A stretch of DNA of 15,834 nucleotides from Promethearchaeota archaeon (lineage in GTDB: Archaea; Asgardarchaeota; Lokiarchaeia; Sigyniarchaeales; SOKP01). Each line of letters opens with the position of its first letter. Position 1 is the stretch's first letter. Made by a program: the position numbers and the translations under genes. The notes below the pieces were generated by a model. That model did no database searches. It saw only the letters and a program-made list of their open reading frames with translations, and had not been told where the DNA came from. Positions 1,313-8,222 of the stretch are shown one piece after another. Where the stretch lies: positions 1 through 15,834 of the forward strand of contig JBHLNZ010000066.1 in the NCBI GenBank assembly GCA_048941015.1. The letters run 5' to 3'.

Positions 1313-2080
1313 TCATTCTTCTTCGGCAGTTTCTTTGCCAAGTAATCTTACCACAGCATCAGCCAATTTATTTTGACTTCGACTCATGATGCCTTTAATT
1401 TTTCCTTCTTTTCCCAACACTCTAAGCATAATTCCGTTCCAAACTGAAGAAGGATCTCCTTTAATTTTTTTAAACCTGTCTCGAAATACTTTCACATCAA
1501 TATTTTTATAATCCTTCGCAGCTTCAGTACACTTAAAGCATAAGATACATTTATCTTTATCTACAACTATCTCTGTCCCGTCTCGAGACATAGCTCCAAC
1601 AGAACATTCATCCGCATATGCATCTAACACTTTGGTATCCTTTTCACTAGAAGTAATAGTGATCGAACCTTCTACAACTTTCCGAACTTTTTTCCCATTC
1701 TCTAATTCTCTAACTTCCTCTTCAAATTCTGGCAAAGAGCCATTCTCTACTAAAAGTACTTTCTTCTCACCGTTAATGAATAATTCTAATGTATACCCAG
1801 GACATATCCAAGTACAACTACCACACCAAATACACTTTTCCGTGTCAACAACTATTTTCTTATCAGATTCAATGCCCATTTCTTCTGGCGTCCCAATAGC
1901 TGTTTTTTTTAAAGGTTCATCATAAATAGATATTGTAACTGGGCAAACTCTATGACAAAAACCACATTGAATGCATTTATCTTCATGATAGCGCAATATC
2001 ATCTCATGATTAAGCATTTTATATACATAATCTGTGGTATTTTCATCAACTTGAATTGATTTTTTTGCTGGTAACGACAA
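1313..2080 (-). CDS. 4Fe-4S polyferredoxin-like protein (FwdF/FwdG-like)
   Basis: CIQCGFCHRVCP and CIWCGSCTWICP full motifs, plus ECSVGA and CILCFKC partial motifs. TTG start. Confidence 0.85.
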   Translation of the reverse strand: MSLPAKKSIQVDENTTDYVYKMLNHEMILRYHEDKCIQCGFCHRVCPVTISIYDEPLKKTAIGTPEEMGIESDKKIVVDTEKCIWCGSCTWICPGYTLELFINGEKKVLLVENGSLPEFEEEVRELENGKKVRKVVEGSITITSSEKDTKVLDAYADECSVGAMSRDGTEIVVDKDKCILCFKCTEAAKDYKNIDVKVFRDRFKKIKGDPSSVWNGIMLRVLGKEGKIKGIMSRSQNKLADAVVRLLGKETAEEE

Positions 2081-2132: not shown

Positions 2133-3272
2133 TTATGTTCTTTCTAATTCCATCTCCCTGATTGCTTTTCCAGATCTGAATGGAACATCATCGACGCTTT
2201 CTCCTGCCGTATATTTAAATATTTCCTTAAATGCTTCATTTAATGACTGAAAGTATAGAGATAATGGTAAATGTTGTGGACAATTATTATCACAATTCCC
2301 ACATTCAACACATCGATCTGCTACATGAGCTATACGAGTAAGTTGATATGTTTCTTTATTAATTACTTTATCTTTTCTTTTCTGCTGAAGTATACAATCT
2401 ACACAATAACAAACGGGACATCCCCTAATACACATTCCACACATTGTGCATGCTTGAAGGCGTTCAAGCTTTTCTGTTTGAGAAAGTTTATCCCATTCTT
2501 CTAAATCTTTGGCTCTTTTCTCAATTGCTTTTTGCTTTATTGCCTTTACCATATCATCTTGTTTAGTTTTGATATCATTAGGAAGGCTTTTTTTAGCTAT
2601 ACCCGATTTTTCTAATAAATCATTTCCTTTATCAGAATAAACCTTTAAGATTATTTCATCAGAATTGATAGGAATTGCTAAGTCACTAATACCTAAGTCA
2701 GCTACCACTGGAATTTTTCTCAGACATCGAGAACAGTTTTCAGCTATATCTAAACTTACCTCTTTAGTTTTACCATCCTTTAAAAGAAGGACTAATCCCT
2801 TATCACCAATTTTTTCCTTAACTACTTGTGTTAGATCAAGATCTTTTACTTTTTTCATTTCACGTGAGGCATTGATAATCATTCCCCGATCCTCAAACGC
2901 GATTATAAAAAGATTCTCTAGGTTTATCTGTTTTATCTTTACTAACTCAATAATCGCTCTGGTATCACATGGCCGAGCAATTAGTCCCACTTTTTCTTTT
3001 AATGCCCCATCAACAGATTTATGCAAATATTTAGCTGCAGAATCTGTTCTCGCATAACCATAAGAAATTAGGTTGGTTAGCGGAAAACCTGAAATATCTT
3101 CAGGTTTACTATATAATTTAGGAGTTACTGTAAAACGATCTTCTTCATTTGTTTTTTTATCAATTCTCGTTTCTGCTCCGATGATCTTATCAACAACTTT
3201 TTCTTTTAAAAGAGTTGCTAATAGCTTCGGAAAATCTTCTACTTTTATTAAGTAATCTGCTATTGCATCCAT
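2133..3272 (-). CDS. FdhB/FrhB-family (F420-dependent dehydrogenase beta subunit-like) Fe-S protein
   Basis: Motifs ARPCDTRAIIELVK, NCSRC, CTMCGMCIRGCPVCYCVDC and RIAHVADRCVECGNCDNNCP match the methanogen FdhB architecture. Confidence 0.85.
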   Translation of the reverse strand: MDAIADYLIKVEDFPKLLATLLKEKVVDKIIGAETRIDKKTNEEDRFTVTPKLYSKPEDISGFPLTNLISYGYARTDSAAKYLHKSVDGALKEKVGLIARPCDTRAIIELVKIKQINLENLFIIAFEDRGMIINASREMKKVKDLDLTQVVKEKIGDKGLVLLLKDGKTKEVSLDIAENCSRCLRKIPVVADLGISDLAIPINSDEIILKVYSDKGNDLLEKSGIAKKSLPNDIKTKQDDMVKAIKQKAIEKRAKDLEEWDKLSQTEKLERLQACTMCGMCIRGCPVCYCVDCILQQKRKDKVINKETYQLTRIAHVADRCVECGNCDNNCPQHLPLSLYFQSLNEAFKEIFKYTAGESVDDVPFRSGKAIREMELERT

Positions 3273-3380
3273 GTCTTTCCAACTCTCAATAATAAATTTT
3301 TTTCTTAAATGAATATAATATTAAATTTTCTTCCAATGAAGTTTTTTAAATATATTTTTTATAAATTTTTATTTATTTTT

Positions 3381-3453
3381 ATGTGTTTTATGGTGCTCCC
3401 ATTTCTTCAACTGAGCTCTCATTTTTTCAACTCAGTATCATTAGTTAACACAT
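3381..3453 (-). promoter_or_regulatory. SECIS element, eukaryote/Lokiarchaeota-type
   Basis: Minus-strand RNA reads AUGUGUU-AACUA-AUGAU-ACUGAGUU-GAAAAAAUGAG-AGCUCAGU-UGAA-GAAAUGGGAGCACCAUAA-AACACAU. This gives a 7-bp helix I, an AUGA/GA core, an 8-bp helix II and an A-rich apical loop. It starts 6 nt after the stop of a gene with two in-frame UGAs. Confidence 0.85.
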
Positions 3454-3459
3454 TAATTT

Positions 3460-3921
3460 TTAAGCTTTAGCTTTCGCTTTAGCTTCGTCTTTTTTTGGTG
3501 TGCCGCTTTTTGGTCTTAAAGGACTAGGACCTAATTCGCGAATTGTTTTATCAAATTCCGTTGCTTCTTTTTGAAATTTCTGACCTTCAGCTGCGGTACA
3601 GTACCCGAACTTCAATCTTTTTTCACTAAGCCCCATAGATTTTAATACTTCTTTAAGATATTCTACTTGACGATATGCAAAATAGTTACCCGTCTCATAA
3701 TCGCATTCTTTTGGGTATCATCCAATAATCATAACGCCATCAGCACCTCGTCCGAAAGATCTCATTACTACATCGTCGCCTACTCTGCCTGTGCAAGGTA
3801 CTAAAATAGTTCTTATCGATGATGGATATTGTGCGCGAATTGTTCCAGCCATATCAGCGGAACCATAACCTCATTTCCAACAGAGAAATGCAATAATCTT
3901 AATATCTTCTTTTTCTGCCAT
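3460..3921 (-). CDS. mvhD: MvhD/VhuD [2Fe-2S] subunit; selenoprotein with two Sec residues (U17, U68); 153 aa
   Basis: Manual translation: MAEKEDIKIIAFLCWK-U-GYGSADMAGTIRAQYPSSIRTILVPCTGRV...GADGVMIIG-U-YPKECDYETGNY...RLKFGYCTAAEGQKF...ELGPSPLR...AKAKA*. TGA at 3873-3871 and 3720-3718 align with MvhD Cys positions. Stop TAA at 3462-3460. Missing from the ORF track. Confidence 0.95.
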
Positions 3922-3928
3922 TTTTTTC

Positions 3929-3934
3929 CACCTC
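3929..3934 (-). promoter_or_regulatory. Shine-Dalgarno site of mvhD
   Basis: GAGGTG 7 nt upstream of ATG 3921, inside the 14-nt hdrA-mvhD spacer. Confidence 0.7.
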
Positions 3935-3935
3935 T

Positions 3936-5912
3936 TTACTCCTCGATTGGTAATAACTCGTCAATTAAAGCCATATATTGATCATCTCTATAATATGTTA
4001 GTTCTATTGCTTTCGAAGGACAAATCGCTGCACACGTTCCACATCCTCGGCATCGGATTAAATCAACGACAATATTTCCTTTTTCATTCACAGATATTGC
4101 TGTATATGGACAGGATTCAATACATTTATAACATTTCGCACATCTCTCATCTGAAGGGGTTGCACGTATTAATTCCATAGTATACTCTCCCTTACTCATT
4201 GGAATGCCAGCTGTAGATGCCGCTCCTTTTGCTTGACTTACTGCTTTATCAATTTCTTTCTGTCCTTGAGCAGAACCACAGATATATATTCCTGGAACCT
4301 TAGTACTAATAGGATCAAGTCGAGCGTGATATTCTTTTAAAAATCCATCAGGACTTTTTTCCATGTTTAATACTCGAGCAATCTCCACAGTTCCTTGAGA
4401 GGGTAAAGATGCTGGTGAAGTAACAATCATATGAACTTCCATAGTTACTACTGTATCAGTCCCAACAGGTTCAAATTGAACAATTAAATTCTTTGTTAAG
4501 GGATCTTCTTCTACCTTTCCCACAAGACCTTTAACGAATATTATTCCGGCATCCCTAGATCTCCTATAATATTCTTCGTAATCCTTGCCCGCACATCTCA
4601 TATCAATGTAAGTACAGACAATTTGGGAATCAGGATACTCCGATTTTATTAGTTTTGAATTTTTTAAAGAGAGATTGCAGCAAATCACAGAACACCATGG
4701 ATTTTTATTTATATCTCGACTGCCTACACAGTTTATGAATAATATTTTTGTTGGTCGTTTTCCATCAGAAGGTCGTTTTAAGTGTCCAAAAGTGGGGCCA
4801 TTAGGAGCAATAATTCGTTCTAGCTGAATTTGATTGATTACATTATCATATTTTCCATAACCATAATCATCACCTTGATATAGGTCCCACCCGGTAGCAA
4901 CAATTATTGTTCCCACTTCAATTTCTTCTTCTCTATCTTGAATACTAAAGTCTATCGCATCCTCTTCGCAAGAATCAACACAAGCAAAACATTCCACACA
5001 AGACTGCCGTGCGATATCGTAAATTGCGGGTACAGCTTGAGCAAATGCAATGTCAATACATTTTCTCGCCGAAAGATTCTCATCGAAATAATTTGGTAAA
5101 TAAATCGGACATACTTCAGTACACGCACTACACCCAGTGCATTTAATTTCATCAACGAATCGTGTATGCCGTGTAACTTTCACTTTAAAATTTCCAATAT
5201 ACCCATCTACTTGAGTAACTTCACTTAGAGTCATAATCTCAATATTTGGATGGCGATTTGCCTCTAACATTTTAGGACCGAGAATTCATATCGAACAATC
5301 ATCGGTTGGAAACGTACGGTCAAGTTGGGACATACGGCCTCCAATAGTGGTATTTTTTTCAACCAAATAGACTTTAAATCCGGCATCACCTAAATCAACA
5401 GCAGCTGTTAATCCTGCAATACCGCCTCCAACAACTAGAGCAGCACGCTTAACAGGTACAGTCTTGGTTGGTACATCCTCTAAAAGTCTTGCTCTAGAAA
5501 TACCTGCTTTGATAAGTTCAACTGCTTTCTGAATCGCTTTTTCACGAACTTCAGGAGCTTGATGAACGAAACTACAATGTTCTCTGATGTTAACAAACTC
5601 CAAATATCTTGGAGGTAAACCTGCTTCGCTTAGAATAGCATGAAAGACTGGTTGATGTGTTTTAGGTGTACAAGCCGCGACAACAATTCTTTCAAGTTTA
5701 CTTTCTTCAATTTGTTCTTTAATATATGAGCTTCCACCTTCAGTACACATACTTAAGTATTCGAATGCTTTAACCCCATCTAATTTATTGAGCTCTTCTA
5801 CAATCCGTGGTACATCCAAAATTCCAGCAATGTTAATACCTCAGCGACACACAAATACGCCAACAATGGACTTTTTAGCTTCATTATTGTCCTTGGTCTG
5901 TTTTTCAGACAA
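3936..5912 (-). CDS. hdrA: Heterodisulfide reductase subunit A (flavin/Fe-S, electron-bifurcating family); selenoprotein with two Sec residues (U24, U209); 658 aa
   Basis: One continuous frame from TTG 5912: MSEKQTKDNNEAKKSIVGVFVCR-U-GINIAG...VAACTP...NIREHCSFVH...GGGIAG...DRTFPTDDCSI-U-ILGPKMLEANRHPNI...CVGSRD...WCSVICC..., with inserted and C-terminal ferredoxin domains. TGA at 5843-5841 and 5288-5286. Joins track ORFs 5286..5819 and 3936..5270 in frame. Confidence 0.95.
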
Positions 5913-6298: not shown

Positions 6299-7000
6299 AT
6301 GGAAGAAAAAACAGAAAATGAGAATTTTCAAAAGACCAAACAAAAACTCTCTGACTTATTAAAAAGAAGACCACCCCAAGGACAGTTTCGAGACCAATTA
6401 TTTTGGCTAGTTGATATAATACATGTTTGTAAGGCGAGTGGAAATCTATTCTTAATGCAAGAAGCTAAACTTATGGAAAAAGCTTTAAATAATCTCTCTG
6501 AATTCTTAAAGACAGGTGATACTCAAGTATTAAATGATGCAACTAAACACGTTGAACAATTTGCTCGTATTGTGAAAGCAATAGCCACTGGTGGTTTAGT
6601 TGAATTTAATGTATTTTTAAGTTATGCTACCAGAGACAATGATTTTTTCAGAATCGCGGAAACGGCTAGACGGTTGGAAGAATATCCTGAAATTACAAAG
6701 GTATTTTATTGGGAACAAGACAGTGGTCAAAATATAATCGAATATATGGAAGCAAATCTTGAAAGATCTAAGGTTTTTGTCCATTTCTGTTCTCAACATT
6801 CTAAAACTTCAAAATCGGTCAAACTAGAGCGGGAAGCTGCAATACAATTAAATCAAGAAGAAAGAATAAGAATTCTTCCAGTATTTGAAAATCCTTCTGA
6901 TATCCCATTACTCATAAAACCCTACTTAGGTGTTGAATATAATCCTAACGATTTTGAGGGATTTATTGAAAATCTTTATAGAGAAATTTTACGGAAATAA
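6299..7000 (+). CDS. TIR-domain protein (C-terminal TIR_2) with an uncharacterised helical N-terminal region
   Basis: FNVFLSYATRD, VFYWEQDSGQNIIEYMEANLERSKVFVHFCS, SKSVKLEREAA and RILPVF follow the TIR beta/alpha pattern. Confidence 0.85.
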   Translation: MEEKTENENFQKTKQKLSDLLKRRPPQGQFRDQLFWLVDIIHVCKASGNLFLMQEAKLMEKALNNLSEFLKTGDTQVLNDATKHVEQFARIVKAIATGGLVEFNVFLSYATRDNDFFRIAETARRLEEYPEITKVFYWEQDSGQNIIEYMEANLERSKVFVHFCSQHSKTSKSVKLEREAAIQLNQEERIRILPVFENPSDIPLLIKPYLGVEYNPNDFEGFIENLYREILRK

Positions 7001-7037: not shown

Positions 7038-8222
7038 ATGAATTCTTTTACTTTAGACCACGTCAATAATTTCGTTTTAAAAAAAAATCATTTAACTAAC
7101 GATTCTAAAACTGAGAATATTCTTCAAATTGTAGAAGATTTATGCGGATTACACGCAACCGGTACTTTAGAACCTTATATTCAACTTTTTATAAGAAGTA
7201 ATAATTTTGAAAAGCAAGATTTAAATCGAGAACTCTACGAGAAAAATTCTTTAGGAAGAATACGAGGAATGCGAAAGACTTTGTTTATAGAAGTGAAAGA
7301 AATGATACCAATCGTATATAATGCCGTTAAATATTTAACAGATAGTCTCGAAAAGAAGTACTTAGAATACCGAAATGTCTCAATAGAAGAATATAAAAAA
7401 ATATCAACAGAAATCTTAAACTTATTAAACCAAAATGAAATGTCCACGTCTCAAATAAAGAAAACATTAAACTCTCAAAAGAATATCTCTGCAATTGTAT
7501 CAGTAATGTGTGATAGAATGGAATTAATACGAGGAAGACCCTTAAAAAGTTGGAAGGATCGAAGACTCCTTTATGCTCCTTTTAAAAAATATTTTCCTAA
7601 TATGGATCTTGGAAAATATACAGAAGAACAAGCTTTAGAACTTCTAATTCATAAGTATATTAAAACATATGGTCCATGTACAGAAAATGATATTGTTTGG
7701 TGGACTGGAATAACTAAAGGAAAAGTTAATAATGCTCTTCATAATTTAACAAGTAATATTCAAAAAGTTCACATCGAAACTCTGAACCATATATTCTATA
7801 TAAACAATATTGATATCAACAAACTAAACAATAATATTTCAATACATCAGAGTCATGTTAACTTATTGCCAATTCTTGATCCTTATGTTATGGGATACAA
7901 AAATAGAGAGAGATATATTCAATCAAAGAACTATGGTTATATCTTTGATAGAAGTGGTAATGCAACATCTACTATTTTATTAAATGGAAGAATTATTGGT
8001 GTCTGGGATATTTTAGAGAAACCTTATCCTAAGATTAAGCTTCTTCTCTTTGATTTTGTAGAAAAACAAATATTAGAAAAGATAAAGAAAGAAGCTAAAT
8101 GTATAGGAAGATTTATTATAGGGGACGATGTGCAAATAACAGAATGCGAAAGAATGCTTCCTTTATCTAAAAGAACAGCTGGAGGCTTTATGACACCTTT
8201 AAAGGATTCAGAGACTATGTAG
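7038..8222 (+). CDS. AlkZ/YcaQ (HTH_42) family winged-helix DNA glycosylase-like protein
   Basis: GLHAT, RGMRKTL, YIKTYGPCTENDIVWWTG, LLPILDPYVMGYKNR and ILLNGRIIGVW motifs, and a length of 394 aa. Confidence 0.85.
   Translation: MNSFTLDHVNNFVLKKNHLTNDSKTENILQIVEDLCGLHATGTLEPYIQLFIRSNNFEKQDLNRELYEKNSLGRIRGMRKTLFIEVKEMIPIVYNAVKYLTDSLEKKYLEYRNVSIEEYKKISTEILNLLNQNEMSTSQIKKTLNSQKNISAIVSVMCDRMELIRGRPLKSWKDRRLLYAPFKKYFPNMDLGKYTEEQALELLIHKYIKTYGPCTENDIVWWTGITKGKVNNALHNLTSNIQKVHIETLNHIFYINNIDINKLNNNISIHQSHVNLLPILDPYVMGYKNRERYIQSKNYGYIFDRSGNATSTILLNGRIIGVWDILEKPYPKIKLLLFDFVEKQILEKIKKEAKCIGRFIIGDDVQITECERMLPLSKRTAGGFMTPLKDSETM

Follow-up and report, generated by a model that had tools for sequence, protein, structure and literature searches.

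The window, by which we mean the whole 15,834-nucleotide stretch of DNA analyzed here, is an entire contig of a 3.59-Mb MAG with 29% G+C. Its minus strand carries two adjoining genes with in-frame UGA codons, and a compact RNA element follows the second of them. The two genes and the spacer between them are as follows:

3936..5912, minus strand: hdrA, heterodisulfide reductase subunit A, 658 aa, TTG start
3922..3935, minus strand: spacer between hdrA and mvhD, 14 nt, contains GAGGUGG
3460..3921, minus strand: mvhD (vhuD), delta subunit of F420-non-reducing hydrogenase, 153 aa

The hdrA frame is open over this length if TGA is read as selenocysteine (Sec), and it contains two in-frame UGA codons, at 5843–5841 and 5288–5286. 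The best match of its product is the solved chain 9sfi_A (E 2e-206); the first UGA aligns to a Cys, and the second falls on the canonical Sec site of HdrA, shown as X in the "DDCAMXIL" of this chain. The mvhD product matches Pfam FlpD (PF02662, E 2.9e-43), and its gene contributes two further in-frame UGA codons, at 3873–3871 (Sec17) and 3720–3718 (Sec68), ahead of a TAA stop at 3462–3460. Both mvhD UGA codons align to Cys residues of the solved MvhD chains 8rvu_F and 8rvv_F, and mvhD orthologues in relatives retain both TGA codons. Gene callers split or truncate such UGA-containing hdrA and mvhD genes at the UGA.

Several other genes lie nearby. Downstream on the same strand are an FrhB-like Fe-S protein gene (window 2133–3272, 379 aa, ATG at 3272) and a gene for a 2x[4Fe-4S] ferredoxin-like protein (window 1313–2080, 255 aa). 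The FrhB-like gene is syntenic at orthologous loci (L003, L006 and L010), so the element behind mvhD may be intercistronic rather than located at a true 3' end; the 109-nt spacer also has a TATA-like box, TTTATAAAA. On the opposite strand are a TIR-domain protein gene (window 6299–7000, plus strand, 233 aa, TIR_2 E 2e-14) and then a gene for an AlkZ-like DNA glycosylase-family protein (window 7038–8222, plus strand, 394 aa), a pair that could be defence-related.

The element itself starts 6 nt past the mvhD stop, and in the 5' to 3' direction of the minus strand its parts are as follows:

3381..3453, minus strand: complete SECIS, a three-way junction (RNAfold; 102.4 bits with covariance model R1, below)
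3447..3453, minus strand: helix I 5' arm, AUGUGUU, corresponding to the C helix of a kink-turn; pairs with AACACAU (RNAfold)
3442..3446, minus strand: 5' junction strand, AACUA; "CU.AUGA" does not vary among the 10 orthologues of alignment A1 and hardly varies among the 33 of A3 (below)
3438..3441, minus strand: AUGA core, 5' half of the tandem G.A/A.G pairs; invariant in 33/33 orthologues
3429..3437, minus strand: helix II 5' strand, UACUGAGUU, nine positions, of which the first forms a U.U mismatch (sequence, RNAfold, covariation)
3418..3428, minus strand: apical loop, GAAAAAAUGAG, 11 nt, with an A-rich start and an AG end, as in the lokiSECIS description (below)
3409..3417, minus strand: helix II 3' strand, AGCUCAGUU (sequence, RNAfold, covariation)
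3407..3408, minus strand: GA, 3' half of the core; GA in 32/33 orthologues and AA in one (L053)
3403..3406, minus strand: linker AGAA, from the core to the third helix; C, CU or CUA takes its place in other SECIS families
3390..3402, minus strand: third helix (T), with AUGG (3402–3399), loop GAGCA (3398–3394) and CCAU (3393–3390); present in the MFE fold, its loop with the recurrent GC(A) motif
3388..3389, minus strand: linker AA, 2 nt, from the T helix to helix I; 0 nt in 23/31 other vhuD SECIS
3381..3387, minus strand: helix I 3' arm, AACACAU (sequence, RNAfold, covariation)

Helix I, an AUGA(U)/(U)GA(A) core, an 8-bp helix II with one G-U pair, the loop and the side hairpin had all been drawn in the original prediction, and every one of its coordinates and pairings was reproduced from the minus-strand letters of 3200–3700 and by RNAfold. 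In helix II, ACUGAGUU (3436–3429) pairs with AGCUCAGU (3417–3410) over 8 bp with a single G-U pair (U3430-G3416), and the U.U pair 3437/3409 extends this to a stem of nine positions. When RNAfold was run without constraints, the MFE and centroid structures both consisted of exactly helix I, helix II and the side hairpin. The MFE of –17.7 kcal/mol compares with –9.0 ± 2.4 kcal/mol in 200 dinucleotide shuffles (z –3.57), and 0 of the 200 shuffles was as stable.

The AUGA of the element lies 18 nt past the mvhD TAA codon, and the four UGA codons are 277, 430, 1845 and 2400 nt upstream of this core. The hdrA-mvhD spacer is only 14 nt long and therefore leaves no room for a separate hdrA SECIS; the core pattern had no match between hdrA and mvhD, and no other core was found nearby. 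The bacterial type of SECIS is a hairpin within the coding sequence, directly 3' of each UGA, and is bound by SelB; the conserved element here sits in the 3' region, 277–2400 nt from the UGA codons. This arrangement predicts that this Loki MAG makes a Sec-containing HdrA and a Sec-containing MvhD from one common signal.

An element of this kind has been described before. The lokiSECIS of Mariotti et al. 2016 (PMC4989117) has an AUGA, a 9-bp stem, an 11-nt loop and then a GA, and is located close to the end of the CDS; the first five nucleotides of its loop are A-rich, and the last is an ultraconserved G that usually follows an A. In hdrA-vhuD tandems there is always one such element, after vhuD, and it was inferred to serve up to six UGA codons over ~2 kb; standard SECIS tools fail on it (PMC4989117). 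Huang, Xiao & Zhang 2024 (PMC11227280) extended the survey of this Asgard type I "eSECIS-like" structure to >400 Asgard genomes, with a model that allows a stem of 7–15 bp with ≤2 mismatches and a loop of 8–20 nt. The window element has every one of the lokiSECIS features of sequence and position (AUGA, nine-position stem, 11-nt loop, GA, and a site after vhuD), so that its main finding is already known and the locus is one more example. The element class, including the common SECIS of hdrA-vhuD pairs, was published in 2016.

The genome fits such a signal. The closest vhuD relatives are in Promethearchaeota (Loki) MAGs, including Loki_b32 and bin41. A tRNA-Sec gene is present (61.4 bits against a 47-bit cut-off, with the same call by ARAGORN) and is adjoined by a SepSecS gene (370.9 bits); an EFsec-like gene ~3 kb from the tRNA-Sec gene falls slightly short of the cut-off for bacterial selB, at 238 bits. 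A SelD gene with one in-frame TGA is on contig C48, and a full-length PSTK-like gene on contig C91 scores 135.6 bits, below the curated cut-off. By the lineage of its relatives and by this machinery, the host is a Sec-using Asgard archaeon, as the hosts of lokiSECIS are. The Sec genes form a cluster at C119:15220–20805, with the tRNA-Sec gene immediately upstream of SepSecS on the same strand and the EFsec-like gene ~3 kb off. No SBP2-like gene was found in the genome, where Pfam L7Ae (PF01248) matches only two short genes, those for ribosomal L7Ae and L30e; SBP2 is absent from Asgard archaea according to the literature (Mariotti et al. 2016, PMC4989117). Taken as a whole, these features indicate on comparative grounds that the element just after mvhD/vhuD is very probably a functional lokiSECIS, and the expectation of an Asgard-type, eukaryote-like SECIS behind the UGA-containing mvhD is borne out by the Loki relatives, the Sec machinery and the lokiSECIS features.

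How close is it to the SECIS elements of other lineages? With the eukaryotic, SBP2-bound elements (SECIS_1 and others) it shares a 3' UTR site, action at a distance, the AUGA/GA quartet of sheared pairs, unpaired adenines in the apical loop and two helices that flank the core. It differs from them in its shorter helix II (nine positions), in the extra 3'-strand helix inside the "internal loop", in the two cistrons that it serves, and in that neither a match to Rfam nor an SBP2-like gene was found. Across the whole window Rfam gave no match at the gathering threshold, and at E ≤ 10 the region 3330–3500 gave no SECIS family, only non-SECIS matches at chance level. The identification of the element with the "eukaryotic SECIS consensus" therefore stands for the core and the loop adenines and not for the rest, which the Rfam SECIS models do not match at E ≤ 10; the shorter helix II noted in the same prediction is real, at nine positions, and was already published in 2016. 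The vhuD SECIS of Methanococcales and Methanopyrus (GAA_A type, with flanking AUGA...GAC/AAC and a short extra stem; PMC4989117) has the gene and the 3' site in common with the window element, and resembles the Asgard elements in its 5' AUGA, in a closing extra stem and in a C after GA or AA, which is found in 30/34 Asgard vhuD SECIS. The window element differs from it in having no GC-rich 10-bp stem, no GAA_A bulge and no 3-bp GC upper stem, and in having A after GA. That it is not of the Methanococcus GAA/A type, as had been said at the outset, is borne out by its sequence and fold, which show none of these three features. Two other arrangements were considered and rejected. A composite with an embedded euryarchaeal GAA_A SECIS (helix I, GAA, T, A) fails since the GAA/A flanks occur only in the window's family and most families have no spacer between T and helix I, and pairing of the UAG at the loop end with the CUA linker is sterically implausible across a 9-bp helix.

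The comparison suggested in the original prediction, with orthologous mvhD genes and with the 3' regions of other UGA-containing genes, was made for the orthologues with covariance model R1, built from alignment A1 (10 vhuD orthologues). R1 finds a full-length element behind 33/33 orthologous vhuD genes searched (47.9–103.5 bits, E ≤ 1e-9). In the alignment of these 33 (A3), 98.4% of pair cells are paired, against 30–50% with slid partners, and compensatory changes are found in 7/8 pairs of helix II and 4/7 pairs of helix I. The apical loop ends in AG in all 33 and has at least three A among its first five nucleotides in 32 (the other, L049, has two). Over the whole genome R1 matches the window copy only; it is too sequence-specific for the SECIS of paralogues, and for this reason the core pattern and a second model, R2, were used. 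The core lies within ~25 nt of the end of 4/4 UGA-containing MvhD paralogues in this genome (C5, C44, C131 and C137) and within 400 nt after 0/5 paralogues with Cys. R2 matches 41 elements full-length, including non-vhuD candidates (C20, C32 and C130) and vhuD SECIS of other Asgard families; owing to the different linkers, it does not recover the family of the window element at E ≤ 0.01. These comparisons show that the element exceeds chance and is associated exclusively with UGA-containing genes; the motif is present at orthologous mvhD loci and at genes for other selenoproteins, and absent from the Cys paralogues.

The side hairpin lies on the 3' side of the "internal loop". Published texts give the core, the upper stem and the loop, or describe in general terms an "internal loop + lower stem" without conserved nucleotides (PMC4989117, PMC11227280). 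With the published lokiSECIS the window element shares an identical core, the stem, the loop, the site 3' of vhuD, the use of one element for four UGA codons over 2.4 kb, and a Loki host with Sec machinery of archaeal/eukaryotic type and no SBP2, and differs in the 3'-strand hairpin and in the closing helix that makes a three-way junction. This third arm is not described in the main texts of Mariotti 2016 (PMC4989117), Huang 2024 (PMC11227280), Sun 2021 or a 2026 review; a term search of the Huang 2024 supplementary files did not find it, and a literature search on SECIS as a three-way junction returned nothing relevant. In the window's family the T helix AUGG/CCAU is nearly sequence-invariant, with a compensatory change in 1/4 pairs in A3, so the evidence for its pairing in this copy comes mainly from the fold and from comparison with other families.

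Those families provide the covariation. In the relatives, all vhuD paralogue families have a hairpin of different sequence at the same place, followed by the 3' strand of the closing helix, and examples of their T stems are:

AACCAU/AUGGUU
AUCCU/AGGAU
AACUCA/UGAGUU
ACUC/GAGU
UACCC/GGGUA
AACUUUU/AAAAGUU
GCCC/GGGC

RNAalifold predicted the same three helices from a plain MAFFT alignment of nine C137-type elements, and compensatory changes were found in 4/6 T pairs of such elements (alignment A4). In the 41 diverse SECIS matched by R2 (alignment A6), 21/21 pairs have a compensatory change, including 6/6 in the T helix; 91% of T cells are paired, whereas sliding the 3' partners leaves 38–47% paired over the whole structure. 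The A6 covariation score is 0.726, compared with 0.221 in shuffles (0/500 of which reach it) and ≤0.141 with slid partners; A6 was fitted to the model structure, which favors pairing, but the controls are far lower. The same layout is seen in selD (type II), where RNAalifold on a MAFFT alignment of 14 3' regions gave helix I, helix II and a T helix abutting helix I, with compensatory changes in three T pairs and four helix I pairs. A mixed MAFFT alignment of all SECIS families (A5) misaligned the window's family and was left out of these counts. A rule-based detector of three-way junctions fires on 31/34 vhuD SECIS, 23% of shuffled flanks and 34% of 711 random core-like sites of this AT-rich genome, and is thus too permissive; such occurrence counts are weak, and the case for a third helix rests on covariation. 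The original prediction had suggested that the side hairpin may be a structural variant; the covariation in other vhuD, selenoprotein and Asgard families supports instead the reading that Asgard SECIS have it as a third helix, which is conserved and covaries. The third arm is in this sense a refinement of the published lokiSECIS model and is not peculiar to the window.

Its surroundings are also regular. The linker between T and helix I is 0 nt long in 23/31 vhuD elements and ≤1 nt in 30/31, and the T loop contains GC, often as GCA, in 26/31, where the frequency of the GC dinucleotide in the flanks is ~0.008. The window's family departs from the others in having AGAA before T, AA after T and A instead of C after GA.

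The secondary structure resembles that of a k-junction, in which a C helix, a loop and the G.A/A.G pairs that open an NC helix are combined with a third helix in the non-bulged strand (PMC4005666, PMC10573300); TPP riboswitches are an example (Wang, Daldrop, Huang & Lilley 2014, PMC4005666; 2023, PMC10573300). In the Asgard elements the AUGA strand is the bulged one, helix I takes the place of the C helix, the G.A pairs and helix II take that of the NC helix, and the T hairpin, adjacent to the C helix, interrupts the non-bulged 3' strand, an arrangement that fits a k-junction at the level of secondary-structure topology. The likeness extends to the position of T beside the C helix, with the 0–1 nt linker of 30/31 elements being what coaxial stacking requires (the window copy has 2 nt). 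The SECIS differ in a longer 5' loop (2–7 nt plus AU), in 1–4 nt between GA and T, and in function, which is translational recoding rather than ligand sensing, and the resemblance is one of secondary structure only.

These observations can be joined in a single proposal. The Asgard SECIS, as a pre-eukaryotic form, would be a three-way junction of the k-junction type rather than a two-helix kink-turn hairpin; its third arm would be stacked on helix I, with the conserved GC(A) loop as a second recognition determinant for a factor that takes the place of SBP2, and the eukaryotic SECIS would have arisen by loss of the arm when SBP2 took over. We put this forward tentatively, as a possible account that falls well short of a probable one.

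The same helices could have a humbler role. The element would still be a functional SECIS in which only the published part matters, and helix I together with the side hairpin would form no more than a passive clamp against mispairing of the core with the A/U-rich flanks, having neither a specific recognition role nor k-junction geometry. In favor of this, the published models need the core only, the sequence of the T stem varies widely among families, and the linker 5' of T ranges from 0 to 6 nt. Eukaryotic SECIS elements, moreover, are active without such a third helix. A clamp leaves unexplained, however, the GC in 26/31 T loops against its low frequency in the flanks, the near-constant spacing of 0–1 nt between T and helix I, and the near-invariant AUGG-GNGCA-CCAU of the window's own family, and we judge this explanation rather unlikely.

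Could the element have nothing to do with UGA recoding, and be a stabilizing or terminator hairpin at a 3' end or an intercistronic processing signal? Such a role would suit its site in the A/U-rich spacer that separates mvhD from the following gene (ATG 3272). Yet a terminator scan gave no terminator-like site, the element stands behind the UGA-containing paralogues and none of the five Cys paralogues, a stability hairpin needs no invariant AUGA and GA, and the same architecture is found behind unrelated selenoprotein genes; we regard this explanation as very improbable. Chance occurrence of a box C/D-like sRNA or of a kink-turn operator for L7Ae autoregulation is extremely improbable. In its favor, AUGAU facing UGA resembles boxes C and D (including the U.U after the G.A pairs), and there is a weak Rfam match to sR52 (10.8 bits, E 4.4). 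But that score is far under the 50-bit gathering cut-off and the match is offset (3439–3489); C'/D' boxes and a guide region are absent, orthologues differ freely at the U.U position, and the linkage to selenoprotein genes is strict.

If the element is a lokiSECIS with a third arm, it might work as follows. hdrA and mvhD would be transcribed together, and in the transcript the sheared AUGA/GA pairs at the base of helix II would probably adopt a kink-turn-type core. This core, the A-rich loop and perhaps the third helix would be recognized by an archaeal SECIS-binding activity, for which EFsec itself, ribosomal L7Ae or L30e, or another protein are candidates; binding of the element by L7Ae, which had been raised in the original prediction, is a reasonable hypothesis. 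The binding activity would bring EFsec-GTP-Sec-tRNA(Sec) to ribosomes that have paused at any of the four UGA codons, and Sec would enter the chain where homologues have Cys. Hidden in the "internal loop" of Asgard SECIS is a conserved, covarying third helix with a conserved loop motif. This helix may be one reason that search tools for eukaryotic and archaeal SECIS fail to detect these elements, and it could give a better search model for Asgard selenoproteomes, and the loop of the third arm may serve as a handle for finding the archaeal SECIS-binding factor and for tracing the evolution of the eukaryotic SECIS.

Some of the other SECIS-bearing loci of this genome and its relatives have features of their own. 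In this genome's second vhuD paralogue (C44:40624–41138, minus strand; L135), which has two Sec-UGA codons, the apparent UGA stop abuts the gene's own AUGA core (...GAA UGA AUGA...), so that within 0.5 kb the same codon would mean Sec at two sites and stop at a third. A SECIS with a third arm (C32:3047–3082, minus strand; L140:164–251, minus strand; R2 34.1 bits, E 7e-5) lies ~100 nt past a beta-grasp/ubiquitin-like ORF; this ORF ends in ...QPDVGC followed by two tandem in-frame UGA codons, which could give a Ubl with a Cys-Sec-Sec tail, or the first of them could be the stop. Another three-armed SECIS (C20:3785–3819, minus strand; L138:153–235, minus strand; R2 46.4 bits) is 38 nt past a 37-aa CxxC...CxxC ORF whose only UGA is the last codon before TAA, and this UGA could encode Sec at the C terminus or serve as an ordinary stop. 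A 63-aa ORF with a G-U-P-C motif and one in-frame UGA (C130:6317–6351, minus strand; L141:205–396, minus strand) ends 2 nt before a three-armed SECIS (R2 39.8 bits); it has a hydrophobic N-terminal stretch, is possibly membrane-anchored and may be a small redox selenoprotein. A 77-aa zinc-ribbon-like frame (C31:43545–43579, minus strand; L139:218–451, minus strand) has four internal in-frame UGA codons and is a candidate multi-Sec microprotein; a fifth UGA is supplied by the AUGA core of the SECIS. In a relative of the same family, two R2-type SECIS lie on opposite strands within 1.4 kb (L159:57–141, plus strand, and 1430–1515, minus strand), which implies convergent selenoprotein genes.
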